Shown here one piece after another: positions 20,824 to 63,253 of a DNA stretch of 64,000 nt (position 1 is the stretch's first letter; each line of letters opens with the position of its first letter). The stretch covers positions 256,001 through 320,000 of the forward strand of contig CAWFSF010000006.1 of NCBI GenBank assembly GCA_963818475.1, given 5' to 3'. The notes below the pieces were generated by a model. It saw only the letters and a list, made by a program, of their open reading frames with translations, was not told the DNA's origin and made no database searches. The translations under genes were made by a program, and so were the position numbers. Source of the stretch: Nitrospirota bacterium (GTDB lineage: Bacteria; Nitrospirota; UBA9217).

Positions 20824-21264
20824 TTGTCTGAGTAGCTTCGGTTTGGGGTGAAATAAACGCGATGATGTCAAACTTCACCCTTCAACCTTCAAACTTCTTA
20901 GGCTGACGCCTGATGAGCATAATGAATTGATCGATTCTTTAAAAAAGAATTTCAAATTATAACCTGCGATATGTGTCTCGTTGAAGGGAAAGCATAGAAA
21001 AAAAAGCGTCCCCAAAAATTGCAGAAGCTTAAGTAAGGTCCACTTAAGGGGTAGTGGACGCGCGGGAAGACGACGGAGATGGAGAATTTTACGCACTGCC
21101 GTGATAGTATACGGTTTACATACAATGCAATTAAGAACGTAACGAACGCTCGGCAAGGAAAAAGCAAACGCTTGCTTGACACGTATCATCGGTAAGCTCA
21201 TACTGCCTCAACTGAATTTCCCGAAAAGGTATGGAGTGTTCAAGCTTCACTCTTCAAACTTCTT

Positions 21265-21783
21265 ATGGTGATCATCCGGCAGTGCAGGCAGAGCGATTTC
21301 GATGCAATGTATGTCATCATCAACGATGCCGCGCAGGCATACCGGGACGTCATTCCTGCTGATCGCTGGAACGAGCCCTATATGTCCCGCGAATACCTTC
21401 AGCATGAGATCGATGATGGCGTCGCATTCTGGGGATACGAGGAGAACGGCGAACTGATCGGCGTGATGGGCATCCAGGCTGTTCAGAACGTCACGCTCAT
21501 CCGTCATGCCTACGTGCGGACAGCAGATCGCGGCAAAGGCATCGGCGGCAAGCTGCTGTCGGCACTGAAACGGAAGACCAGCGGACCTACGCTGGTGGGC
21601 ACCTGGAAGGCCGCTGTCTGGGCAATCCGGTTCTACGAAAAGTACGGGTATCGGCTCGTGACCGAGCAACAGAAGGAACAGCTGCTCCGGAAGTACTGGA
21701 AGATCCCCGAACGGCAGGTGGAAACGTCGGTTGTTCTGGCGGACCGGACATGGTTCGAGATGGGTAGTGAGCGCCGGGAGTAA
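21265..21783 (+). CDS. GNAT family N-acetyltransferase
   Basis: RHAYV..DRGKGIGGKLL and AIRFYEKYGY. Confidence 0.9.
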   Translation: MVIIRQCRQSDFDAMYVIINDAAQAYRDVIPADRWNEPYMSREYLQHEIDDGVAFWGYEENGELIGVMGIQAVQNVTLIRHAYVRTADRGKGIGGKLLSALKRKTSGPTLVGTWKAAVWAIRFYEKYGYRLVTEQQKEQLLRKYWKIPERQVETSVVLADRTWFEMGSERRE

Positions 21784-23237: not shown

Positions 23238-23850
23238 GATAAACAAATTCTTTGAGGATGTATTGGGTTACGATGTGTTTACTGAAATATCGCGAGAACA
23301 CGTCGTTAAGGAACGAAATGTCGATTATGCGATTAAACTCAACGGCAAAGTAAAATTCTTTATTGAAGTAAAGCAAGCTGGAATAAATCTGAAGGAAAAG
23401 CATATAGAACAAGCGGAAAACTACGCTGCAAACTCCGGGGTTCCCTGGGTTCTTTTGACCAACGGTGTCTATTGGCAGCTCTATCACCTAAGTTTCGAAG
23501 ATGGGATCCAGAGCGATTTGGTTCTCTCTGTAGATCTCAAAGAAGGTGACATTAAAGAGGCTGCACAGGCATTGGGAATACTTCATAGGAAAAGTGTTCT
23601 GAAAGGCGAGATAGAGGAGTTTTACGAGAAGGTAAAAACACTCTCGCCTAAGAGCATAGTTCAGGCACTATTTCACGAAAGTACCTTAAAAGTCATTCGC
23701 GCTTGTCTAAAGAGCAGTCATGGAATCAGAGTTGACGAGCAAGAGTTGGTGGATAATATCAGAAAAATGATTTCCAAGGAAACCTGGGAGTCTATCGGGG
23801 ATGTTAAGATTACAAGAAAAAGAAAAACAAAGCCAAAGGCGAAGGAAGAA
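23238..23850 (+). pseudogene. Type I restriction enzyme HsdR N-terminal-domain protein, truncated at both ends
   Basis: DVLGYD...VDYAIK...FIEVK...QAENYA...LTNG motifs. The recognisable part starts just after the GTCCC site and ends at the GTTCAGG repeat. Confidence 0.7.
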
Positions 23851-23899
23851 GTTCAGGGTTCAGGGTTCAGGGTTCAGGGTTCAGGGTTCAGGGTTCAGA
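23851..23899. repeat. Heptamer tandem repeat (GTTCAGG) x7
   Basis: Counted directly; the last unit is GTTCAGA. Confidence 0.95.
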
Positions 23900-23914
23900 T
23901 CTCTCATCAAGACC

Positions 23915-29773: not shown

Positions 29774-29838
29774 AGTGTGAAGTTTGAAATGTGAAGTGTG
29801 AAATATCAGAATCGGCAAGGAAGGTTGAAGTGTGAAAT
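29774..29838. repeat. Degenerate heptamer repeats (GTGTGAA-like)
   Basis: GTGTGAA GTTTGAA ATGTGAA GTGTGAA, with a second short run. Confidence 0.7.
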
Positions 29839-30123
29839 TGTTAGATAAAGCCACTTGATTTCAAACTCCACCTTTGTAAGTTCTGGCAGCAGAGAGGAAT
29901 ATGAGCGCTGACATGATCCAAATTGATATGCTCGAGGTACAGCAGTAGACCCTTGCTCGTACGGCTGTCTCGCCGACAATTCTATTGAACAAGGTGCACA
30001 GCGTGCCGGATGGAGAGCTAATAACAAAACACAGGAGATATGTTCATTGTCGTAGCCGTCAGAGCGGCGCTTTGTTTGAAGAGCTCCGGGAGGGATAGGC
30101 GGATTAAGTCACGGGAGGTCATT

Positions 30124-33638: not shown

Positions 33639-34241
33639 CGCTGTCACCGTATTCCTCGCCTCGATCAGCCCCGGCCCCAGCATGTTGCTTGCCCTGACGC
33701 ACGGCATGAAGTACGGTACGCGGCGGACCATAGCGACGGCGGCAGGCAACGTCATCGCCTCGCTGCTCCAGGCGGCGGTGTCCATCGCAGGTCTGGGCGC
33801 AATCCTTACCCTGTCTGAAGGTGTGTTCTCGGTCATCCGGTGGCTGGGGGCGGGTTACCTCATTTACCTCGGCATCGTCACGTGGCGGTCTTCCTCGCTC
33901 TTGCAGGCCGGAGAGGAGGGTGGCGCACCGTCCCGATGCTGACGCTCCGCGCCATGTTCCTCCGGTCGTTCCTCGTTGCAGCGGGGAACCCGAAGGCGAT
34001 CATCTTCTTTACGGCGCTCTTCCCCCAGATCGTCGGCAGCGGCGTGCGGCGGCTTTCCGAGGTCTCGATCCTGCTTGCGACCCTGGCGCTCATCGCCTTC
34101 TTCTGCTTCATGCTCTACGCAACGGCGGGTCAGCGCATCCTTGCGCTCTTCTCCCGGCAGGCCAGCGGCCAGAACCTGAACCGGATCGCCGGCGGCGCCT
34201 TTATCGGGGCCGGTATCGGGCTCGCCGTAAGCAGGCGATGA
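33613..34241 (+). CDS. LysE/RhtB family translocator (frameshift near 33935)
   Basis: SPGPSML, WLGAGYLIYLG, NPKAIIFF. Confidence 0.9.
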
Positions 34242-34295
34242 GAGGTGTGAGGGGTGAAGGGTGAATGGTGAAGGAGAGAGGGGAGAGGATGCTGC

Positions 34296-34688: not shown

Positions 34689-35222
34689 AATAGCGCATCA
34701 GAACGCGGTTCTTTCGGATCGTCCTTTCCAAGTTCAGTTCTCAATAAAAATCCTTCCTTCTTCAAATTATTAGAACCGGGAACCATAGGGTCACGTCTTT
34801 TATTTTGGTGTTCGGAACATAGTGGCCGTCCAGGGCCGTCCAGGGTCTGACATGAATCTATAGTTGTTTCCTTCGCATATATCACAAATCGAGATACCCC
34901 ACACTAGGGACTATTGGGGTCAGACTTTAAAATTGACATTCTGGCTCTTCTCGGAGAGCTACTGCGATCGGACCCAATAGGGTCAGGGCCTTTGTTATGG
35001 TGTCGACCCCCAAAAAGCAGTAGTATGCCGTAACAGAAAATTGACTTTTATTGGGATGGATACCCCGCACTGTGAATCCTCGCCCACCAGGAAAGGATCG
35101 CTACCATGTCCCTTGAATTCTGGCTCCTCTAGACGGCGGGGTTCAGGGTCCGGGGTCCAGGGCATGGCGGACGTATGCCCATGATGAACCCGTAAGCCGC
35201 GATAAGGCGGGCCTCGCAGCTT

Positions 35223-41834: not shown

Positions 41835-41914
41835 TTTGACACTGAAAAACATGATTTTATATGATGCCCCCAGATAGATCGGATCATAATAGATCAGTGT
41901 TAATCAGTGTCAAA
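41835..41914. repeat. MITE-like element with 11-bp TIR TTTGACACTGA
   Basis: Perfect inverted termini; related to 59287-59368 and 63073-63253. Confidence 0.7.
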
Positions 41915-42625: not shown

Positions 42626-42730
42626 TTTACCACGAAGACACGAAGTCGCGAAGAATGATAAAAACCGAAAGATACTGTTTAACTGATTACTATTAAGGCC
42701 GTACTTCGTGATCTTAGTGCCTTCGTGGCA
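42626..42730. repeat. Empty MITE-like element with the same TIR type as the GxxExxY cassette
   Basis: TTTACCACGAAGACACGAAGTCGCGAAG ... CTTCGTGATCTTAGTGCCTTCGTGGCA. Confidence 0.8.
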
Positions 42731-42732
42731 TA

Positions 42733-49852: not shown

Positions 49853-49964
49853 AATGCAAAAGGCAAAGTGCAAAATGCGAACGTTAGGTAAATTGATACA
49901 AAGTCCAAAGTCCGCTTTCCGTTCCAATTTTGCAGGTTGAAATTTGCACTTTACTTTTTGCACT
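49853..49964. repeat. Inverted pair of heptamer runs (ATGCAAA-like / TTTGCAC-like)
   Basis: AATGCAAAAGGCAAAGTGCAAAATGCGAA ... TTTTGCA..TTTGCACTTT..TTTTGCACT between convergent genes. Confidence 0.7.
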
Positions 49965-49983: not shown

Positions 49984-51820
49984 CTACCGCAATCCCCGCA
50001 TCTCCTTCACTTTCGCGATGATCGCATTCTTCGAGATGTCCTCGTAATCGAGCAGCTCTCCGGGTTTTCCGCTTTTCGGCATCCTGCGCACGGCAAGAGC
50101 GTAGACCGGCACCGGATGTTCGGAAAGCGCGCTTCTGACCGCTTCGCCGATTCCCCCCTCGGCAACATGGTCCTCGACCGTGATGATCGCCCCCGTATCA
50201 TCTGCGGAACGGGCAAGCGTTGCCGCATCGATCGGCTTGATGCTGTACAGGTCGATGATGCGGATCATGACCCCTGCCTTCTTCAGCTCTTCATAGGCCT
50301 TGAGCGCCTCATGCACGGTGATGCCTGCGCCGACCACCGTGGCGACATCCTTTTTGCTCGACCGTAGTATCTTGGACCCGCCGATCCAGAAGGCTTCGTC
50401 ATTACGGTAAATGATGGGCGTGGCCTGCCGCGTGGTCCGCAGATAGGCAATGCCTGTGTGCTGTGCCATCTTTTCGACAAGCTTTTCCGTTGACACGGCA
50501 TCGGAAGGATAGAGCACGACACTGTTTTGCAGCGTTCTGAACATTGCAATGTCCTCGAGGCCCATCTGGGACGAACCGTCTTCGCCGATCGAAACTCCGG
50601 CATGGGAGCCGCAGAACTTGATGTTGGCAAGCGAATACTGGCTCATGCGTATCTGGTCAAAGGCGCGGGTCAGGAAGGCGGCGAAGGTCGATACGAAGGG
50701 GATCTTGCCGCGGATGGACAGGCCGAGCGCCGTGCCGACCATGTTCTGTTCCGCAATGAACATCTCGAAGAAACGCTCCGGGTACTTCGCCTTGAATATC
50801 TCGGCATAGGTCGAGTTGCTCACCTCGGCATCGAGAACGATCATGTCCGGGAAAAAAGGGAAGATCCGTTCCAGTGCCGTGCCATAGGCGTGCCTCGTGG
50901 CAACGGATGGTGTTCGATGCATAGGAGACCGGCTGCAGGGGAAGCGCTTCCTGTTACTCCCGGCTTGAAGCTCTTCGAGGTTTTGTGATCCGGCCCACCA
51001 GCGTCTTGTCAACAGGGCCAAGCTCTGCTATCGCTCGCACAAGCTCTTCCTTGTTGAGGGTCTTTCCGTGCCACCCGTTCTTGTCCTCGATAAAGGAGAC
51101 GCCTTTGCCCTTCAAGGTCTTGGCGATGATCATGACGGGCTTGTCCCTGGCTTCTGTTGCCTGTTTGAATGCCGTAAGGATCTGGGGCAGATGATGTCCG
51201 TCAATGACGATGGGCTCCCATCCGAAGGCAGACACCCGGTTCTTATACACCGAGAGGTCATGTCCGTACATGGTCTCCCCGCGCTGGCCCAGCCGGTTCA
51301 CGTCCATGATGCCCACGAGGTTGTCCAGCTTGTAGTAAGCGGCGAGTTCCATGGCTTCCCATTGCGAACCCTCGGCCATCTCGCTGTCACCGAGAAGCAC
51401 ATAGGTGCGGTAGGGCAGCTTATCGATATATTTCGCGTTCAGCGCCATGCCCAGTCCGATCGAAAGGCCCTGTCCGAGCGAGCCGGTTGCCGCCTCGGTA
51501 TACCGGAAGGCCGGCGTGGGATGGCCTTCAAAGGGGCTGTTGAACTTTCTGAAGGTCAGGAGTTCCTGCTCTGTTACCTTTCCGGCAGCTGCCCAGATCG
51601 AATAAAAGAGCGGCGATGCGTGGCCTTTGGAAAAGATGAGGCGGTCGTTGTTCGGCATGCGCGGGTTGTCCAGGTCGAACCTGAAGGCGCCGCCGAAGAG
51701 GAGTCCGGTCATCAGATCTGCTGCGGACAGGGAGGACGTCGGATGTCCCGAGCCTGCCTCGGTTGACATGACGAGGCTGTAGTAGCGGATGAGTCTGGCA
51801 ATGCTTTCAAGGTTGTTCAT
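49984..51820 (-). CDS. tkt: Transketolase (frameshift near 50950)
   Basis: SGHPTSS, SKGHA, GSLGQG, GDSE..EG, IAEQNMV, EDGSSQM. Confidence 0.92.
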
Positions 51821-51985
51821 GGGGCCTCCGGAAAAACCAAAATTTATTAACGGCAGTTGGCCGCAGATGTACGCAGATTAACTGCAGATAAAACCAGAGA
51901 TTAAGGTGGAAAAAACTTTACGATAAAATGTTGTTAGATTTTACCGGCGTCCAAATGTTCCCTCACATCTGTCAGCTCAATCGGA

Positions 51986-53419
51986 TCAATAATGCATTGC
52001 ACTCTTTATTATTTCTATCATCGGTCCGGGATACACGCCAAGCCAGATCAGCAGAACCATAAGACACGTAAGAACTGCGCTTCCGAATCTCGATGAAGGA
52101 ACAGCGGGCTCGGCTGACTGTCCTTCCGCCTGTTCAAAGAGCGCCGCGATGATGCGCAGATAGTAGAACAGGCCGATGGCGCTGTTGATGACGAGGACGA
52201 TGACCAGTGCCCAGAGGGACGATTCCGCGCCTGCACCCACCACATAGAACTTGCCGACGAATCCGGCGGTGAGCGGGATGCCTGCGAGCGAGAACAGCAT
52301 GGCGCTGAAAACTGCGGCAAGCCAGGGACGGCGCCAGGCGAGGCCCTGGTAGTCTTCCATGAGGTCGGCGTCACGGTCCTTGCCCGAGACCACGCTTACC
52401 ACGCCGAAAGCGCCGATGGTGGTGATGAAGTAGGCGACGAGGTAAAAGGCGGATGCCGAGATCGCCATGGGTCCGCTTGCCAGAAGCGTTACGAGCAGAT
52501 ACCCGAGATGGGAGATGGACGAGTATGCCAGAATGCGTTTGACGTTGTTCTGCTTCAGAGCGAGCAGGTTGCCAACGAACATCGACGCGATGGCAACGGC
52601 GCTCATGATCAGGAGCAGGGCTGGGCCGTTCATGGATGTCGATGCTCGTAAAGATCCGGAGAAGCACCGCAAAGACCGCGCCCTTTTGATATGGTTGCCA
52701 CGAATGCGGTCACCGGTGCAGGCGCTCCCTCGTATACGTCAGGCGTCCAGAGATGGAAAGGAACGACTGCAAGCTTGAACCCGAGACCTGCCAGGACCAT
52801 GGCGAGCCCGGCTGTCAGCGGCAAACCGTATGTTCCGGGAGCGCCGATGCGGGAAGCGATGTGGGTGAAGGTCATGCTGCCGGTCTCGGCATATACGAGC
52901 GCCATGCCGAAGAGTAGTACTCCTGACGAGGCAGCGGCCAGGATCAGGTATTTGACGCCTGCCTCGGTGCTCCGGAGGCTGTGGCGATGGTAGGCGGTCA
53001 AGGCATAGAGCGATACGCTCAAGCAGTTCGATGCCGAGGAAGAGCGATGCAAAGTGCGTGGCAGCGGTCAGCACCATTGCTCCCAGCGTTGCCAGGAGCA
53101 GCAAAAGATAGAACTCCTCCCGTTCGCCGGTACGGCCTTCAAAGTAGGAATAAGACAAGGCAGCGACTGCAAAGGTGCCGATCACGATCAACCCCAGAAA
53201 GAACAGGGCGTAGTAGTCGATCCTGATGAGCGAGGTTACTTCACGGGGCACGGTACAGATGGCTCCGCTAATGCTTGCAAGCGTCAAGGCAAGGCCTGAG
53301 AGCGTCAGGACCACGGTCAGCAAATGGCTGCGGCGCAGGGCGATCGCGAGCATGACCACGATGGCGGTGATCGACAGCATGATGAAGGGTGAAAGGGCGG
53401 TCAGGTCTCCCATGTTCAT
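51986..53419 (-). CDS. nuoN: NADH-quinone oxidoreductase subunit N (frameshifted)
   Basis: [37 protein letters not shown] across three ORFs. Confidence 0.92.
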
Positions 53420-54925
53420 TGTCCGACTCCCCTGGTTGATATTGGTTGCCCATGGCTTGAACAGCATTCGAGTCCGCTCAGCACGGGCTTGGCAGTATCC
53501 AGAATGGTCTGCGGAAAAAGGCCGATCGTGATTATCGCGATGATCATGATCGCAAGCATTCCCGTCTCGCGAACTGAAAGATCGGGCAGCTTGCTATCTG
53601 CCTATGGTACCGTGGAACACGCGCTGCGCTATCCGGAGCGAGTAGACGACTGAAAGGACGAGGCCCAAAGCGCCGATGACGGTCAAGGCGATATTCACCG
53701 GGAAGGTGCCGAGCAGGACCAGGAACTCGCCGACGAAGTTGGCGGTGCCCGGCAGGCCGAGCGAAGCAAGCACGAACACCAGGCCCATGCTGCTGAGCCG
53801 AGGAGCGCTGGTCCAGAAACCGCCCATGCTCCCCAGCTCGCGCGTATGGATGCGCTCCTGGATCATGCCCACGAGCATGAACAGCGCGCCCGTGGTAACG
53901 CCATGCGCCACGATCTGCATGACCGCACCGGACAAGGCAGCCGTGGTTCCGGCGAAGATCCCGAGCAGCACGAATCCCATATGGCTTACGCTGGTGTAGG
54001 CCACGAGGCGCTTCAGGTCGGTCTGGGCAAAAGCAAGCACGGCCCCGTACAGAATACCCGCAACAGCAAGTCCCATGACCACTGGCGCAACCATTTGCAC
54101 GGCATCGGGGAAGAGCGGCAGCACAAAGCGCAGGAGCCCGTAAGCACCGGTCTTTAAGAGCAGCCCCGCCAGGATGACGCTTCCGGCCGTGGGAGCTTCG
54201 GTATGCGCATCAGGAAGCCAGGGATGGAACGGCAGCATCGGCAGTTTCACGGCAAAGGCAATGAAGAACCCGAGCATGAGCCAGAGGGAAGCAGACGGCG
54301 ACATGGCGGTTCCCAGCAGCAGCGGATAGTCGAAGGTGTAGAAGCCGGTGCTCTTGCCATGAATGAAGTAGAGCCCCAGGATGGAGAGCAGCATCAAAAG
54401 GCCGCCGGCCTGGGTAAAGATAAAGAACTTGTACGAGGCGTATACGCGGTTCTCGTGCCCCCAGATGTTGATCAGGAAGTACATGGGCACGAGCATCAGT
54501 TCCCAGAAGAAATAGAACAGGAACAGGTCGAGCGAGAGGAAAACACCGAGGATGCCAGCCAGGATAAAGAGCAGGTTCAAATGAAAGAACCCGACCCGGT
54601 CGCTGATCTCGGTCCAGGAGCAGAGTACGGCCAGAATGCCGAGAAATATCGTAAGGGACACGAGGATCAGGCTCAGCCCGTCCAAGGCCAGATGGAAGCT
54701 GATGCCGAGCTGCGGAATCCAGGCGCGCTGCATCTCGACCAGCCAGGAATCAGGCGTAAGGGACACCGCAGCAACGTGCTCGTTCCAGAGCAGCAGGACC
54801 AGTACCAGGTCAAACGTGAGCGCACTCAGCGCGATCCAGCGCGGCAGGTTGCTGTTCTTCCCGTCGGAAAGCCATGCTGCCAGTCCGCCCAGAAGCGGTA
54901 TGATGATGAGCAGGAGGAGGATCAT
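53416..54925 (-). CDS. nuoM: NADH-quinone oxidoreductase subunit M (frameshift near the 3' end)
   Basis: FFWELMLVPMY, WLPDAHTEAPTAGS, DLKRLVAYTSVSH. Confidence 0.93.
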
Positions 54926-54969
54926 GGTGTTTAGTGCTTTCCTCTCAGTATGGTACTTGTTGATTCTCA

Positions 54970-55422
54970 TCCTCTCCCCAACGAGGGAGAGGACCGAGGT
55001 GAGGGGGGAATCAGATTCCCTTTTCCATCTTTTCCAATATATCAGCCATAACTACTTCCGGCGATTTTAATACGTCATGGTTCCAGTAACGTAAAACACG
55101 GTAGCCCCGTTCTTTCAACCAGGCACTTCTTTTTTCATCATATTGAACTTGATCGGTGTGCTGGCCTCCATCGAGTTCGATGATCAAGCGTTGTTCTAAA
55201 CAGATAAAATCTACAATATAAGACCCGATCGGCTGCTGTCTCCGGAACTTAAATGCACCCAGTTGACGCATTCGCAGGTGTTTCCAAAGAAGCCGTTCCG
55301 CGTCGGTTGCTTTCCTGCGTAATTGCCTTGCGTTTGTGATACTGGTAGGACTGTGCTCCATTTATGGAGATCCTTCCCTTTTATCCCCCTCACCCTGGCC
55401 CCTCCCTCGAAGGGGAGAGGGA
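54970..55422. mobile_element. DUF559 gene cassette bounded by inverted palindromic elements
   Basis: 54970-55008 and 55385-55422 are inverted copies of CCCCCTCACC..CCTCTCCC..GGGAGAGG; inserted between nuoL and nuoM. Confidence 0.7.
55011..55361 (-). CDS. DUF559 (Vsr-like/YcjD-like) endonuclease domain protein
   Basis: ARQLRRKAT.AE..LW..LR, FRRQQPIG.YIVDF, IELDGGQH. Confidence 0.92.
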   Translation of the reverse strand: MEHSPTSITNARQLRRKATDAERLLWKHLRMRQLGAFKFRRQQPIGSYIVDFICLEQRLIIELDGGQHTDQVQYDEKRSAWLKERGYRVLRYWNHDVLKSPEVVMADILEKMEKGI

Positions 55423-55437
55423 ATAAGGGGCTACATC

Positions 55438-57326
55438 CTACTGAAAGAGCAATATGAACCCCAAAAACACCACCACACCCACAGCGATCCCCATTGCATA
55501 CCATCGTATATTGCCGGTCTGTGTTCTGCTCAAGACACGGTGCAAGGCCGTATTCATGGTAACGATGCCGTCATATCCGCTATCAATGAAGTCATCCTTA
55601 TTGATCCTCGCGATCCAAAGAAAGGGTTTTACCAAAAGGGCATCATAGAGGGCATCAAATCCCCAGCCTGCGAACCAGAACCTGCGCAGCGCCTCAACCG
55701 GGCTGGCAGTTGCGAACTTATCAGCATAGGCCGGTTTGCGAACGTAGAGAACGTAAGCAAGCACGATACCTGAAACAGAGACTAATGAAGCCACGATCTG
55801 CAAGAGCAGTTCCATGTTTCCTGCTGCATGTATCTGGCGAAGCCGGGAATACCGCTGACATGAAATTCGAGAAGAGCGGCATATTGCCGAGCGTATCAGG
55901 AATTTCGATAAAACCTCCGATAATGGATAAAAGAGCGAGCACGATGAGCGGAGCGGTCATACGTCTCCCCGGTTTCATACTGAGCCCGATCTTTTCTTTT
56001 CCAAAGAAGGTGACAAATACCATCCTGAAGGTATAGAGCGAAGTAATGAACGCCCCCAAAAGGCCTGCCAGCCAGAGCCAGATGTTGCCTGTTGGCGACG
56101 ACCATGCTTGCCACAGGATCAGGTCCTTGCTGTAGAACCCTGCGGTCACGAGCGGCAACGCCGAGAGCGAGGCCGAGCCGATGAGGAATGTCCAGAACAC
56201 CAGCAGGAAGCCGCTTCCTGAGCCCGCCCATCTTGAACATGTCGTGTTCCTCGTGCTGGGCCAGGATGACGACACCTGCGCCAAGGAACAGCAGCGCTTT
56301 GAAGAACGCGTGGGTCATGAAGTGGAACATTGCTGCCGACCAGGCGCCAACGCCCAGGGCAAGGAACATGTAGCCGATCTGACTGATCGTTGAATAGGCA
56401 AGCACCCGTTTGATATCTTTCTGCGTCAGGGCGCTGAAACCTGCAAGCAGCAGCGTTGCTGCACCGATGACTGCTACGGCCGTCTGAACAGGAGGCGCGA
56501 GCAGAAACAGAACGTGGGTACGGGCAATGAGATACACGCCGGCGGTCACCATGGTGGCTGCATGGATGAGCGCGCTGACCGGCGTGGGGCCAGCCATGGC
56601 ATCGGGAAGCCAGGTCTGGAGCGGCAGCTGGGCGGATTTACCGACTGCTCCTCCCAGAAGCAGTGCCGCCGCAGCCATTGCCAGGGGAGAGCCGATCTGC
56701 CATTCAGCCGAGGCCCGCTGCATCAGTTCCTGAATATGGAGCGTTCCGAGGTTCGTGTACAAGAGGAACAGACCGATCGCCATGAAGGTATCGCCGATGC
56801 GCGTTACGATAAAGGCCTTGCGCGCAGCAGCGCCGTTCACGGGATCCTTGTACCAGAACCCGATCAGCAGATAACTGCAGAGGCCCACGCCTTCCCACCC
56901 GAGATACAGGAGCAGCAGGTTGTCAGCCAGTACGAGCGTCAGCATGGATCCGACAAAGAGGTTCATATAAGCGAAGAAACGGCTGTATCCTTCGTCGTTC
57001 TGCATGAATTCAGCAGAATAAAGATGAATGAGGAAGCCCACAAAGGTGATGACGAAAATCATGACGAGCGACAGCGCATCAAGAGAGAATGAAACGCTGG
57101 CCGAGAAACCGCCGACCTTCATCCAGGTCCAGAGCGTCTGTGTGAATGCAATGTCCTGAGACCCGATGAACTCGATCGCCATGATCATGGTCAGGAGAGC
57201 GGACATGCCGACTGAGCCCGCTCCGACGAGGGCGATTGTGGCCCGGGAGAGGCGACGGCCTGCCAGCGCCAGGATCAGGAATCCGGCAAAGGGCAGGGAA
57301 GGTATGAGGAAAAGATAATTAGACAT
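55438..57326 (-). CDS. nuoL: NADH-quinone oxidoreductase subunit L (frameshifted)
   Basis: GWEGVGLCSY, KSAQLPLQTWLPDAMAGPTPVSALIHAATMV. Confidence 0.93.
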
Positions 57327-57354
57327 ACGTTAGATTCACCACAAGACAAGTTGA

Positions 57355-57427
57355 ACCGCAGAGACGCCGAGACGCTGAGAAAATCCTAGCGATTATGCAT
57401 TTCTCTGTGTCTCCGTGCCTCCGTGGT
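57355..57427. repeat. MITE-like inverted octamer-repeat element between nuoK and nuoL
   Basis: ACCGCAGAGACGCCGAGACGCTGAGA ... TCTCTGTGTCTCCGTGCCTCCGTGGT. Confidence 0.75.
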
Positions 57428-57437
57428 AGATTAGCGT

Positions 57438-57749
57438 TCATCCTTTCATGCTGTTTGCAGCATCAGCATCCAGTGTCTTCAGGTTGTGGTACAGCTGGAT
57501 CACGAGCGCCAATCCGACCGAAACCTCTGCCGCAGCCATGGTCAGGATAAAGATGAACATGACCTGGCCGTCGGGCTGCCCCCAGCGGGCGCCTGCCACG
57601 ACGAAGGCGATGCCGACGGCATTCAGCATGATCTCGATGGACATGAGCATGAACACGATGTTGCGCCGGACCAGTACGCCGACAAAACCCAGCGCAAAGA
57701 TCACGGCTGCCAGGATAAGTCCGTGTTCCATGGGGACCGTTGCCATCAT
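57438..57749 (-). CDS. nuoK: NADH-quinone oxidoreductase subunit K
   Basis: [27 protein letters not shown]. Confidence 0.95.
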
Positions 57750-58264
57750 GATCTGCCCTCTTCAACTTTTCCATGACGATGGGGCCTGCCGAGGTGGTAG
57801 GCGCCAACCAGTCCGCTCAGCAGAAGCATGGACGCCAGCTCAACGCCGATCACATAGGGGCCGAAGAGCGCGATGCCGATCTCCTTGGGCGATATTTCAG
57901 CGCCAACAGAGAGTCGTTCCTGGCCGGTCGCGAACAGGTAGATAAGCTCGGCAGCGAGGACGATGATAAGGAGGGACGGGCCGATCCATATACCCGGTGT
58001 CAAAAGCCGGGCTTCCTCTTTCGCCGCCTGTCCGCCGAGGTTCAGCATCATAATGACGAATATGAAAAGCACCATGATGGCGCCGGCGTAGATGATCACT
58101 TCGAGCGCAGCCACGAAGGGCGCGCCAAGGGCAAAGAAGATCAAAGCTACTGCCAGCAGCGATACAATCAGGTAGAGTAGGGCATGCACGGCATTCGTCC
58201 GGGTAATGACCAGGATGGTCGAGATGACTGCCACGAGGGCTGAGATGTAGAAAAGAAAGTTCAT
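57746..58264 (-). CDS. nuoJ: NADH-quinone oxidoreductase subunit J
   Basis: [17 protein letters not shown]; start at MNFLFY. Confidence 0.95.
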
Positions 58265-58274
58265 GAACACCTTT

Positions 58275-58753
58275 TTTGCCACGAAGGCACGAAGACACGA
58301 AGAACTTCTAAAAAAGTAAAAGCCGCTATACAACAATCCTTTTTATGCCGTGCTTAATAAGGGGGACATTAAAGTTAATGAGAAAACCTAAACGTTTATC
58401 GGTCAATTTTAAGTGACTAATTATCTGGGCTTCCCAGACAGGGTGCATTTCTTCCACTGCTTTTAGCTCGCAAATAGCCAGATTTTCGACAAGAACATCC
58501 AGTCGTAATCCTTCGTCGAATTTAAGTCCGTCGTATTCAATGGGGATGTCCACTTGTCTTTGGTTTTGTAATCCTCGTTTAGTCAACTCATGACAAAAAC
58601 AAATCTCATATACTTTTTCAAGCAAGCCCGGCCCTAGTGCTTTGTGGACAGTGTAAGCCGCATCAACGATTTTCTTGGCAATAACCTCTTCAGTTTCCGA
58701 CAAGTTAAGAGTGCTCATGACTCCCCTTCGTGTCTTCGTGCCTTCGTGGCAAA
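58275..58753. mobile_element. 479-bp element: GxxExxY gene within perfect 28-bp terminal inverted repeats
   Basis: TTTGCCACGAAGGCACGAAGACACGAAG at 58275-58302 and its exact reverse complement at 58726-58753. Confidence 0.8.
58326..58718 (-). CDS. GxxExxY protein (PD-(D/E)XK nuclease superfamily)
   Basis: LGPGLLEKVY, RLDVLVE, ELK, LINF. Confidence 0.93.
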   Translation of the reverse strand: MSTLNLSETEEVIAKKIVDAAYTVHKALGPGLLEKVYEICFCHELTKRGLQNQRQVDIPIEYDGLKFDEGLRLDVLVENLAICELKAVEEMHPVWEAQIISHLKLTDKRLGFLINFNVPLIKHGIKRIVV

Positions 58754-58759
58754 TTATGT

Positions 58760-59275
58760 TTAGGGTAGTAAGCTCCTTGTATCAACGGGCTTTTCTTCAT
58801 TCTCAGCTTCGCCCTTGTCCTTCCCCTTGATCGACAAGCCTGCGACACGGTAGAAATTATACTCATGGTACTTGCCGGGGCCGCTGATCAGCAGGTCTTC
58901 TTTCTCGTATACGAGGTTCTGCCGCTTATATTCACCCATCTCGAAATCGGTGGTGAGCTGTATGGCATTGGTCGGGCATGCTTCTTCGCAGTATCCGCAA
59001 AAGATGCAGCGCGAGAAGTTGATCCGGAAGAACTCGGGATACCGCCTTCCGTGCTCGTCCTCGGTCGACTGGAGCGAGATGCAGTCCACCGGGCAGGCCA
59101 CGGCGCACAAATAGCATGCGACGCAGCGTTCCTGGCCGTCGGGGTCGCGGGAGAGGATGATCCTGCCGCGCCACCGGGGAGGGATATAAGGCCGCTCCTC
59201 GGGGTACTGGATCGTCGCCCGCTTCCGGAACATGGTCATGAAGACCGTATAGATCGTTTTGAGAAGACTAATCAT
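58760..59275 (-). CDS. nuoI: NADH-quinone oxidoreductase subunit I
   Basis: Two CxxCxxCxxxCP motifs. Confidence 0.95.
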
Positions 59276-59286
59276 ATGAACCTTTT

Positions 59287-59368
59287 GACACTGAAGGACA
59301 CTGATCTCGTTATGATTAAAACATACGATCTAAAGACGTATCATAAAAAATCTGTGTTGATCAGTGTC
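59287..59368. repeat. MITE-like element between nuoH and nuoI
   Basis: GACACTGAAGGACACTGAT ... ATCTGTGTTGATCAGTGTC. Confidence 0.65.
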
Positions 59369-59374
59369 TAAATA

Positions 59375-60331
59375 TTATTTTGCCTTAAGCAGTATCCATG
59401 CACCCGTCACCACCAGATTCAGCAGCGACAACGGCAGCATCACCTTCCATCCGAACGACATCAGCTGATCATACCGCGGCCGGGGAAGCGACGCCCGGAG
59501 CAGGATGAAGAAGCAGATGAAGACAAAGGTCTTGATCAGGAACCAGACGATCGGCGGCAGGAACGGCCCCATCCAGCCGCCGAAGAACAGCGCCACCGTG
59601 ATCGCCGAGATGAGCGTGATGCCGAGATATTCACCCACAAAGAACATGCCGAACTTCAGCCCCGAGTATTCCGAATGGAAGCCTGCAACCAGTTCGCTCT
59701 CCGCCTCGGGAAGGTCAAAGGGCAGCCGGTGGGTCTCGGCGACGCCGGCGATGAAGAAGACCACGAAGCCGATGAACTGCGGCACGATGAACCAGCCGTC
59801 GCGCTGCGCCTCGACGATCACGCGCAGATTGAACGAGCCCGCCAGCATGACCACGCCCATGAGCGACAGACCCATGAAGACCTCATAGCTCAGCATCTGC
59901 GCAACCGAACGCAGCCCGCCCAGGAGCGCATATTTGCTGTCCGAAGCCCATCCTGCGAGCGCCACGCTGTACACACCGAGGGACGACATGGCGAGGAAGA
60001 ACAGCAGCCCGATGTTCAGGTCCACGACCTCGATGCCCGGCGCAAAGGGGATGACCGTGAAGGACATGAGCACGACGACCATGATCACGGCTGGAGCAAT
60101 GATGAACACCGGCTTGTCGGCAAAGGGCGGGACCCAGTCCTCTTTTGTCAGGATCTTCACCGTGTCCGCCAGCACCTGCAGCAGGCCGAAGGGCCCCACG
60201 CGGTTCGGGCCGTACCGGTCCTGCCAGAGCGCAAGGAGCCTGCGCTCAAGCCAGATGAGCATTGCGCCGATGGTCAGCACCACGAAGAGGATGCTGAAGA
60301 GGACCAGGATATGATAAAGCGCTTCATTCAT
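59375..60331 (-). CDS. nuoH: NADH-quinone oxidoreductase subunit H
   Basis: [32 protein letters not shown]. Confidence 0.96.
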
Positions 60332-63052
60332 TTGTTTGCCCGTTTGATTCCGATTTTACTCGCTCCCTGATACCCGGCGCATACATGCTGAGTTCTTCTG
60401 AACCAAAAATGCGATACATCGGAGAATCAGGCTTTTCGCCTTGCTTGGATAGATTGGCATCTGGAATGTTTTGGAAGTAGGTTATTTCCGCGACGGTCTC
60501 CCCCCTCACCCCAGCCCTCTCCCGCGAGGGGAGAGGGGAAACTTGTCCCTCTCTTGATGGGAGGGATGAAGGGAGGGTGAGAGGTTCGATCAAGCGAATT
60601 CCCGTATCGCCGCCTTTCAAGCATCACCGCCGATCTCCTCCTGGTACTTGTTCAGCGCCTGGACCGAGTTCCACCCTGGAGACCAGTAGCGCGAAATAAG
60701 CGGGGCAGGCGGTTGGCCTTCGTATCCTTCCATGGAAAAAGACAAGCGGGGAATCAGCATCGTCGGCTGGTTTGGGTTCATGTACGCTGATGTTCGCGAG
60801 CATGGACGTCCTGCCGCTGTACCGGTGCGGCTGACGCGGTATCTTCTGTCCCGATATCCGAAAGTCAGCTGTCGGTGCAATGTCCAGGACAGGCTTGAAA
60901 ACAGGCAAAGAGGAAGCCATCTCCTCAATAACATCATCCAATGATCGTTTGCCCTCTCCCCCGAGGGAGAGGGTTGGGTGAGGGGGGCTTTCCCGATTGC
61001 TTGCATTATATCATCGATCCACTTCCAGCTTTCCTGAATGTCATGGTTCGGATCGAATACCTTATAGAACCGCTGTGCCCTGCCTTCATTATTCACCAGC
61101 GTCCCATGTGCCTCGGCAAATGTCGCAGCAGGCAGGGTTACATCCGCTTTTGATGAGGTTGGGTTGATCAGGTGATCGATAACGATGACGTTCTTTGCAT
61201 GGGATCAATGCTTCATCGACGATCTTTGCATCAGCCCTGCGATAGAGATCATTTTCGAGGATGATCAGCGTATCTGCCTTGACTGTCCTGCATGGTTTTG
61301 AATGCAGCATCTATATTCTTACCCTTCATGAGAGCGAGTCCCATGGTATTGCATTCAAGAGCTCGTGTAGCAGAGGTCGGCCTGCTTGCCAATCGAGCAA
61401 AGAGCCCATGCAACATTGGCTGCTGCCTCGATAACAGCCTGGTTCATGCATCCGGTGCCGCTCACGATGACCGGCCGCTGTGCGTTCTTGAGCGCGGAGG
61501 CGATCTCGCGTGCGAGAGGCATTCTATCGGTGTCCCCCCTCACCTCGAGTCCTCTCCCCCGATGGGAGAGGAGGGAGAGTGTCAGGTGCATCGGGATCCA
61601 GTTCATGTGCCACGGCAAAACCGAGTCTTGCGATGTCATCGTGCGCAGCTAGATAGGTCTTTGTTGCCACATCATCCAGTTTCGTCTTTTCACAGGACGC
61701 TATATAGAGCGGTGTTCTGATGTTCTGTCCTGCGTTCCTGACAGCATTATCATCCCAGACAGGAATCTTCATGGCTGCCGCAGCCTCGCGTTGTTTGTTC
61801 TGTGCCGCCTGACGAAGCGCGAGGGCGAGCATCGGGGCCGTGTTGGTCACATCCTCGCCAAGTATCAAGACCGCATCTGCTGACTGAACGTCATGGAGCG
61901 ACGGTATCCTGGCAGGACCTCTTTGAAGGATATCGATTATGAGTTCTGTTAGCCGGTGCTCTTTATCAGATACCCCTGAATAGAAATTATCCGGTCCCAC
62001 AAGGGTGCGAAGTGCGAAGTTGGATTCCAGCGAGGCCCGGGGAGAACCGATGCCGATCACGCCTTTGCTTTGAGAAAGCATGTCGGCTATGCGTTTGAGG
62101 GCTGTTACTTTTTCAACGGGTTGCTGCTTCCCCTCACCCCGTCCCTCTCCCTCAGGAGAGAGTAGTGCCCCTCCTAGGGAGGGGGAGAGGGTGACGTTGC
62201 AACAAGAGGTTTTCTGATCCTTTTTCCGCTGTTCACGAACTCATAACCGAACCTGCCGCGGTCGCAGAGGAAATAGCCGTTTACCTCATGGTTGTATCGG
62301 TTCAATATCCTGCGCAGCGTGCCGTATCGTTCGCCCGGGATCGTGTTGCATCCGATGCCGCAGTGAACGCAGATGGACGGCGCTGTCTGAAGGTCCCACT
62401 TTCGGGTGTAATGCTGTTTGAGCGTCTTGTCTGTAAAAACACCGGTGGGACAGACCTCTACCAGGTTCCCGCTGAACTCGCTTTCGAGCGCGCCCTCTTC
62501 ATGCCTGCCGAAATAGACGTTGTCATGGGACCCGAACACGTTAAAGTCGCGGCCGCCTGCATAATTACGATAGAACCTGACGCAGCGGTAGCACTGGATG
62601 CAGCGGTTCATCTCATGATTGATGAAGGGGCCGAGGTCCTGGTTTCGGTGCGTCCGTTTTTTGAACCGCGTCCTGCGGTAATTATGGCCGGTCATGACCG
62701 TCATGTCCTGGAGGTGGCACTCGCCGCCTTCGTCGCAGACCGGACAGTCATGCGGATGGTTCAGCATGAGCCATTCGATCACGCTCGACCGGAAGGCCCG
62801 CGCATCAGGATCGTCAATGGACAAACGCATGCCTTCCGCCACCGGGGTCATGCAGGACATGGTGATCCTGCCGCGCGTATCCTTGTCGTCTTTGAACACC
62901 TTGACCGCGCATTGACGGCATGCGCCCACGGAGTGCAGGGCAGGGTGCCAGCAGAAGTAGGGAAGGTCGAACCCCAGCGAGAGGCAGGCCTGGAGGAGGT
63001 TCTGGCCTTCTTTTACCTGATGGGGTTTATTGTCGATGTAGATCGTAAACAT
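60324..63052 (-). CDS. nuoG: NADH-quinone oxidoreductase subunit G (multiple frameshifts, palindromic insertions)
   Basis: [35 protein letters not shown]; later fragments [21 protein letters not shown]. Confidence 0.9.
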
Positions 63053-63072: not shown

Positions 63073-63253
63073 TTTGACACGGATTTTCACGGATTTAAAC
63101 GCCGATAAGGGCGGATAAATGCAGAATCAAGCTGATTTGTTAAAAGACACGGCGAACTATTTTAAGTTTTTCTCCGAAATTGAGCGTTGTTTCAGCATGT
63201 ATCAAGTTGCTATCAGCCGTGATCATAATTAAATCCGCTCCTTCCGTGTCAAA
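63073..63253. repeat. MITE-like element with 11-bp TIR TTTGACACGGA between nuoF and nuoG
   Basis: Perfect inverted termini with internal 9-10 bp CACGGAT-like repeats; overlaps the nuoF stop codon. Confidence 0.75.

Follow-up and report, generated by a model that had tools for sequence, protein, structure and literature searches.

What is a lone gene for a small putative nuclease doing between nuoI and nuoJ, and why is it bounded by inverted repeats? The question arises in the 64,000-nucleotide stretch of Nitrospirota DNA analyzed here (the window), for which a preliminary description proposed a 479-bp autonomous selfish element whose nuclease acts on its own terminal repeats. The unit is one copy of a cassette (a GxxExxY gene between inverted arms) that recurs at many operon junctions in many phyla and that may spread by homing.

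The cassette between nuoI and nuoJ

From upstream to downstream, the features of the locus are as follows.

58760..59275, minus strand: nuoI, the upstream host gene (ORF and profile match)
58726..58753, minus strand: upstream arm, TTTGC plus three CACGAAG units with an 8-bp period, pointing into the gene
58719..58725, minus strand: purine-rich 7-nt spacer from arm to ATG (read from the sequence)
58326-58718, minus strand: GxxExxY gene, 130 aa (ORF list and profile matches)
58275..58302, plus strand: downstream arm, the exact inverse of the upstream arm
57746..58264, minus strand: nuoJ, the downstream host gene (ORF and profile match)

As first described, the 130-aa GxxExxY gene splits nuoI and nuoJ, and the ORFs and profile matches bear out that all three genes have one orientation. 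The nuoI stop codon is followed after 6 nt by the upstream arm, and the downstream arm is followed after 10 nt by the nuoJ start codon. The arms are 28 nt each, 100% complementary and separated by 423 nt; in the list of the window's 25 longest inverted repeats, no other pair is perfect. They had been described as exact 28-bp inverted repeats of three octamers; the exactness stands, but each arm consists of TTTGC, two octamers and a 7-nt third unit, that is, the third octamer lies only partly inside the repeat. Judging from its sequence, the 7-nt spacer before the ATG is likely a ribosome-binding site; these 7 nt between arm and ATG leave no room for a promoter inside the 479-bp unit. The unit encloses no transposase ORF, as had also been noted, and its sole ORF is PDDEXK_3 (the profile scan of window ORFs covered 26 ORFs from 1-46 kb and those at the nuo junctions). 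The GxxExxY gene has a GC content of 0.41 and a GC3 of 0.40, compared with 0.56-0.57 and 0.70-0.75 for nuoI and nuoJ, and its homologs are GC-poorer than their own loci in 66 of 70 cases.

A protein with the PD-(D/E)XK fold

The window protein matches the GxxExxY profile TIGR04256 with 136.7 bits (cut-off 35) and the PDDEXK_3 profile PF13366 with 129.7 bits (cut-off 22). The best structural matches of its AlphaFold model (pLDDT 93.8) have the PD-(D/E)XK fold, e.g., BpuSI (Z 7.8, rmsd 2.4, 89 residues aligned), SSO0001 (Z 7.7, rmsd 4.5, 100 aligned) and Hjc (Z 6.9, rmsd 3.1, 86 aligned); these scores are middling (all Z <8), no single match stands out, and the fold neighbors include RNA-cutting enzymes. 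A sequence search found no relative with a solved structure, and Foldseek with the window protein gave no match at E<=0.001. The putative catalytic residues are E44, D74, E84 and K86; in 92 sequences D74 is conserved in 91, E84 in 92 and K86 in 91, and these three residues stood outside the search patterns that collected the sequences. The profile score, the fold matches and the retained D/E/K residues thus uphold the original assignment to the PD-(D/E)XK fold, and from fold and motif alone we infer that the protein is a nuclease. A homodimer prediction scored 0.00 and was counted neither way.

Clustering at 50% identity divides the GxxExxY family (matches at E<=0.001) into 16,322 clusters. 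A 2012 survey lists its function as 'Unknown', with 'multiple transfers, mixed clades', in the accessible part of the source (PMC3424549). The protein is under constraint, with pN far under pS in 13 of 14 same-site comparisons. Several protein hits (P0123, P0132, P0133, P0135 and others) are 260-295 aa long and match the domain twice, which suggests natural tandem fusions.

The arm-gene-arm layout across the family

Whether other GxxExxY genes lie between inverted repeats had been proposed as a check, and they do. A GTDB scan with a narrower alignment (A2) gave at least 593 confirmed loci, of which the best 80, that is, one part of the family, were used; these belong to 15 named phyla, with 4 loci unassigned. 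In a motif-free test, 55 of the 76 loci with full flanks have a strong inverted match between the flanks, compared with 3 of 750 windows at random places (mostly in coding sequence, with no matching to intergenic positions); the same test in direct orientation gave 22 of 76. Inward arms were then scored with a motif that had been read by eye from these same loci: they occur on both sides in 51/76, on at least one side in 68/76 and on neither in 8/76, and 8 of 3411 control windows have motif arms on both sides. The arm consensus is approximately three tandem direct units of C[AG]CN[AG]AG[AG]; a second class of arms (class II, CACGGAT type) rests on two loci (L085 and L086) and two remnants.

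The layout extends from Bacteroidota to an archaeon. Because it recurs in isolate genomes as well as MAGs of many phyla, chance or an assembly artefact is rejected as its origin. The phage collection (50,697 records) contained no homolog, and the plasmid collection (72,556 records) only 8 (four with such arms by eye, two divergent with CACGGAT-type arms and two with no clear arms), which gives no support to carriage on phages or small plasmids. A role as an anti-phage defense system finds no support either: no PADLOC family matched, and the neighbors are varied, with no fixed partner gene among the 119 scanned.

Insertion junctions and empty sites

The best 80 loci reduce to at most 70 distinct operon junctions. 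The cassette splits textbook gene pairs (hisB|hisH, leuA|leuB, murG|murC, parA|parB, trpD|trpC and gltB|gltD) and also lies between two halves of metH. The upstream gene is co-oriented with the cassette in 63 of 77 cases (from crude ORF calls), at least three antisense insertions are confirmed (L009, L047 and L075), and the left arm begins 1-19 nt past the upstream stop codon in 25 of 35 cases. Pfam was run on 119 of the 152 called neighboring ORFs (E<=1e-9; 33 omitted), and among these 119 there is no transposase, Y1 (HUH) family or common partner gene.

Empty orthologous junctions, another of the proposed checks, exist: fabD-fabG is empty in Sphingomonas paeninsulae, the junction of radA and a FAD gene in Parabacteroides distasonis, and trpD-trpC in L071, and an orthologous empty site was found for metH. 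The relatives with empty sites share at most about 77% identity, too little to fix the exact ends of the element. For a Nostoc locus (L058), no empty site was found among plasmids.

We also compared the nuo operon of the window with those of L001 (Nitrospiraceae) and L065 (Geobacteraceae). Most nuo junctions in these three have an arm pair, with types that differ between genomes. The nuoJ-K junction is empty in the window and in L065 and has an arm pair in L001; in L065, nuoI-J holds a gene-less CGCAACG pair, and the GxxExxY gene lies between nuoM and nuoN.

Several other features were seen in these operons. The arm pair at nuoK|nuoL in L065 (L065:6261-6522) encloses a short Cys-rich ORF (by eye) that is not GxxExxY and is a possible cargo or replacement gene; elsewhere in this locus (L065:1140-1414) one arm pair is nested in another. 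In L001:11051-12813, nuoK is followed directly by nuoN, and nuoL and nuoM are absent from the 20 kb seen. Within positions 49987-63052 of the window, nuoG, nuoL, nuoM, nuoN and transketolase appear to be split by frameshifts, which would be sequencing indels or operon decay; nuoG, nuoN and transketolase of L001, unlike those of the window, are intact.

Arm units follow the protein tree

The preliminary description proposed that the repeat unit should co-vary with the protein clade, and it does. The tree of 92 proteins is built on few columns, and 44 of its 89 forks are open. In one starred clade of 23 proteins that includes the window protein, 16 of 17 labeled rows have CAC units; in another of 16 proteins from seven phyla, 13 of 14 labeled rows have CGC units. 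Across the 71 labeled rows (21 rows with weak or absent arms carried no label), the CAC/CGC label changes 11 times on the tree, compared with a mean of 22.8 for shuffled labels and 20.9 for shuffles within phyla, with 0 of 500 shuffles reaching the observed value in each case. The AA/GA position of the unit co-varies more weakly (2 and 8 of 500 shuffles), and where two intact paralogs lie on one contig their arm types differ (4/4 pairs). Because the unit label tracks the protein tree even within phyla, this sequence comparison shows that the arms move with the gene and not with the host. Such co-variation falls short of proving that the protein recognizes the arms; simple co-inheritance predicts an equal pattern. 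Alignment positions 14, 71, 87 and 97 of the window protein show the strongest co-variation with the arm unit, with relatedness ignored, and are candidate specificity positions.

The cassette could also be a passenger: an unlinked recombinase, of the host or of another element, would recognize the arms and move the unit, and the nuclease would serve maintenance (addiction, defense or repair) and not mobility. To our knowledge, no strand-transfer activity has been attributed to a PD-(D/E)XK domain of 130 aa, and the link between protein and arms is so far one of sequence; both points would agree with an external helper. Against it, the layout is found from Bacteroidota to an archaeon, which would demand a very broad distribution of the helper; the 119 scanned neighbors share no partner gene, and PADLOC gave no match. 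We regard the passenger explanation as quite improbable.

The perfect repeats that had been noted for the nuoI-nuoJ copy turned out to be an exception: among 37 simple arm pairs this is the only one with 0 mismatches, and the others have 2-15, typically 2-8. In 38 in-register pairs the mismatches are 38 of G.U type, 46 of A.C type and 104 others (p 0.45 for G.U versus A.C), and they cluster at equal positions of each unit. A search for target-site duplications, which had also been suggested, gave none, short or long: in 40 loci, duplications of k=3-8 outside the arms do not exceed permutations (closest at k=4, 11 versus 7.1, 21/300), and in 39 loci the longest common word is 5.33, compared with 5.35 for the null; old insertions could have lost a target duplication. 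Because there is no G·U bias and no target duplication, the arms look like tandem binding sites on double-stranded DNA. A role as RNA stems is disfavored by the balance of G.U and A.C mismatches and by Rfam, which, run on 41-64 kb of the window, gave no match to the arms (its sole hit was sub-threshold and elsewhere).

The same data bear on a host function at the RNA level, that is, pairing of the arms in the polycistronic mRNA and processing of the stems by the protein or RNase III that tunes operon expression. The placement of left arms just past stop codons, the prevalence of co-oriented upstream genes and the RNA-cutting enzymes among the fold neighbors are what such a function would lead one to expect; the mismatches, in both type and usual number, the lack of an Rfam family for the arms, the variation in arm type between genomes at one junction, the antisense insertions (at least three) and the existence of broken copies are not. 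We consider a host RNA function quite improbable, and binding sites on DNA remain our reading of the arms.

Gene-less arm pairs and remnants

The window itself holds gene-less arm pairs of this family, at least five of them, which the preliminary description overlooked. Across 28 sequences, a regular-expression search located 51 pairs that were gene-less or held a remnant, including 5 in the window; the detected pairs outnumber the genes in the window (5 versus 1) and in L001 (7 versus 1). Those of the window, together with one single arm, are as follows.

41838..41911, minus strand: class II gene-less pair (repeat listing and regular expression)
42626..42732, plus strand: gene-less CACGAAG-type pair immediately past the stop codon of a YkuD gene; its left arm is still followed by an ATG
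51861..51890, plus strand: single class II arm (CGCAGAT units) between nuoN and transketolase, assigned by eye
57357..57430, minus strand: gene-less CACGGAG/CGCAGAG-type pair between nuoK and nuoL (repeat listing and regular expression)
59283..59372, minus strand: class II gene-less pair between nuoH and nuoI (repeat listing and regular expression)
63076..63250, minus strand: class II (CACGGAT-type) pair between nuoF and nuoG with a 28-codon remnant, an internal-deletion derivative

The remnant between nuoF and nuoG ends in the last 14 residues of a class II GxxExxY protein. With a C-terminal profile that was picked after the peptide had been seen, it scores 18.3 bits, the best of 127,912 window positions and a score reached in 0 of 2000 shuffles; the N-terminal half of that profile alone is not significant (224/2000). 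In an unconstrained test the same remnant scores 6.3 bits, under the 95th percentile of the null, and only 2 of 26 spacers hold a coding remnant above the 99th percentile. Further remnants were found in L036 and L002. Downstream of murC, the gene is complete in L020; in L016 this junction has arms of the same type, and the gene has been deleted between its start codon and its last codons. By comparison of these sequences, several gene-less pairs (L016 and the remnants) are demonstrably internal deletions.

In the flanks of six loci (L004, L007, L022, L023, L040 and L042), arms also occur in local tandem arrays with a period of 47-129 bp.

An excess of arm pairs over genes would be expected if, as in REPIN/RAYT systems, a sedentary and vertically kept nuclease moves or amplifies gene-less pairs in trans and the gene itself moves rarely. 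That explanation would also accommodate the local arrays, the long retention of copies at one site under purifying selection and the distinct arms of distinct paralogs on one contig, as described for RAYTs in the accessible text of PMC3116915. It is at odds with the number of places at which the gene is found (80 loci at up to 70 junctions, from phyla that intermix on the tree) and with the gene-less pairs themselves: by eye, the spacers of those in the window and L001 look mutually unrelated (20-64 kb seen per genome), and an ATG follows the left arm in 11 of 17 oriented gene-less pairs, compared with 3 of 17 in reverse. Because the spacers look unrelated and the ATG is mostly retained, separate deletions at each site fit better than the copying of one unit. 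We judge the trans-acting, sedentary nuclease unlikely and treat the gene-less pairs as scars of former cassettes.

Age of the copies and a homing-like signal

The preliminary description presented the cassette as an autonomous selfish element and named vertical conservation at the junction as a finding that would contradict it; such conservation is in part what we see, and it speaks against a recent autonomous insertion here. The nuoI-nuoJ junction of L001 is likewise occupied, by a gene 75% identical to that of the window. The protein of L001 groups with the closest homologs of the window protein (support 91/83), and a constraint that makes the two monophyletic is not rejected (p-AU 0.26). 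Sites shared across species were found in seven other groups of loci, so copies are often long-lived, and the shared junction, the grouping and these groups indicate that the window copy was probably inherited, its gene and arms being maintained by selection or by re-invasion. Synonymous dating of the pair fails because the gene and its neighbors are near saturation and GC3 differs (pN 0.13, pS saturated). In the 20-64 kb seen per genome, no near-identical copies were found at different sites.

One pair of MAGs shows a different pattern. The element at murG|murC differs between L016 and L020 at 3 of 600 nt, its flanks at 12 of 270 in the tail of murG and at 16, 27, 36, 36 and 42 per 270 nt outward through murC, and the sequences beyond at ~20%. 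This identity peak centered on the element was found in 1 of 6 pairs profiled, and the five others have none; low pS was likewise not seen in 13 other same-site comparisons. The peak resembles homing, and ordinary interspecies recombination could also produce it. Co-conversion of flanks is described for homing endonucleases in the accessible part of PMC2988022.

Other repeats in the window and its relatives

A DUF559 gene (55011-55361, minus strand; PF04480, 149 bits) lies at nuoL|nuoM (window 54972-55420), where inward-facing CCCCTCACC...GGGAGAGG hairpin repeats flank it; this arm-nuclease-arm arrangement parallels that of the cassette. L039 has a DUF559 gene with similar hairpin arms, and in L019 DUF559, again between such repeats, appears to interrupt a host reading frame. 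Gene-less hairpins of this type occur in the nuoG region at about 60490-60535, 60950-60990, 61535-61580 and 62125-62190; those near 60500, 60950 and 61540 are missing at the matching places in L001, and that near 62130 is common to both.

Tandem arrays of heptamers, some of them inward-facing pairs at gene junctions, lie at 20868-20900, 21260-21285, 23848-23900, 29778-29875, 34239-34275, 35139-35165 and 49856-49960; they are possibly a third repeat family, which may be linked to four-helix-bundle genes. The window also has three near-identical copies of a group II intron with reverse transcriptase/maturase genes (10.8-12.7, 12.9-14.9 and 15.8-17.7 kb) and a diverged 3' fragment (21.8-21.95 kb).

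A proposed mechanism

The comparisons above establish, at the level of sequence, the layout of the cassette, its spread over junctions and phyla, the empty junctions, the co-variation of arms with protein and the decay by internal deletion. The explanation that we favor, and to which we give slightly better than even chances, is that the cassette is selfish: its nuclease acts on the cassette's own arms, and the unit spreads by homing and by rare new insertions. The GxxExxY gene would be expressed from the host operon transcript, and the nuclease would bind the tandem sites on double-stranded DNA and cut at or between the paired arms. Host recombination repair would then copy the gene-bearing allele into a matching scar or empty junction (homing, with co-conversion of the flanks); on rarer occasions, a unit that had been excised or copied would land elsewhere without target duplication, and survivors would be found only among harmless landings just past a stop codon. 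Fixed copies would be inherited for long periods, and internal deletions would leave scars. We count against cutting at the arms that the nuclease would have to spare the many scars of its host.

A stronger version, which we hold tentatively and at somewhat below even chances, is that the cassettes constitute a novel type of mobile DNA in prokaryotes; that a single 130-aa PD-(D/E)XK protein reads the octamer arms and is the sole spread factor encoded by the element; that cycles of invasion, deletion and re-invasion by homing are the source of operon octamer repeats across phyla; and that the DUF559 hairpin pairs and the heptamer pairs are parallel classes.

Novelty and implications

A literature search by family names, accessions, arm motifs and concepts (with most subscription papers and supplements outside its scope) found no account of GxxExxY arms, their co-variation, deletion derivatives or junction preference, and a 2026 preprint on non-coding elements has no relevant passage. 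The arm-GxxExxY-arm cassette is apparently an undescribed family, categorically new in architecture, for which we infer a mechanism. The GxxExxY family gains a predicted substrate, that is, its own flanking octamer arms, so its activity is directly testable. The CAC and CGC variants of protein and arms would be a natural specificity series for a very compact nuclease. If the protein mobilizes the unit, few self-spreading DNA elements would be smaller than the cassette, which would use no DDE, HUH or tyrosine/serine recombinase; if true, this would explain the repeats that fill operon junctions in Bacteroidota, Planctomycetota, Nitrospirota and others.

Comparison with known systems

The TnsA nuclease of Tn7 needs TnsB and is known to work only with TnsB/C. 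It resembles the cassette protein as a PD-(D/E)XK nuclease that serves transposition (PMC3424549, accessible part). The cassette is similar to IS and MITE elements in having inward-pointing ends with tandem sites, one enclosed gene and internal-deletion derivatives, and, as in TIR-type IS, terminal inverted repeats bound the unit. Unlike TIR-type IS, it has neither a DDE transposase nor a target duplication; no multi-copy identical elements were seen, and the gene-less interiors, compared by eye in the window and L001, look unrelated to each other (20-64 kb seen per genome).

Short intergenic tandem repeats are also found in cyanobacteria (SDR/STRR), where they are unexplained. The TAACTGA heptamers of Beggiatoaceae are likewise short intergenic tandem repeats in operons, patchy over phyla and with no known mechanism; they differ in their unit, and the accessible text makes no link to a nuclease (PMC4679880).

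REP/REPIN-RAYT systems share with the cassette extragenic inverted doublets, clusters, tandem arrays and paralog-specific repeat types (PMC3116915, as far as the accessible text goes). RAYT is an HUH tyrosine transposase, whereas the cassette enzyme has the PD-(D/E)XK fold and no Y1 family nearby; a REP is a short palindrome, whereas an arm is a tandem direct array; and the cassette gene, unlike that of RAYT, lies inside one arm pair and has itself been relocated many times.

The seg and mob homing endonucleases of T4-like phages are similar in being lone, often promoter-less and co-transcribed nuclease genes between conserved genes (PMC2988022, accessible part), and I-Ssp6803I is a homing enzyme of the same PD-(D/E)XK fold class (PMC3424549, accessible part). 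Like free-standing homing genes, the cassettes are lone nuclease genes between conserved genes and are missing in some relatives. Homing enzymes, as these partial texts present them, are tied to one cognate site, and flanking arms are not described for them; the cassettes, in contrast, occupy scores of unrelated cellular junctions, nearly always between co-varying inverted arms, and, unlike phage homing genes, have no match in the phage collection. The cassette lacks defining features of IS, RAYT and RNA families and is best described as hybrid-like, combining properties of a free-standing homing endonuclease with those of REPIN/RAYT.
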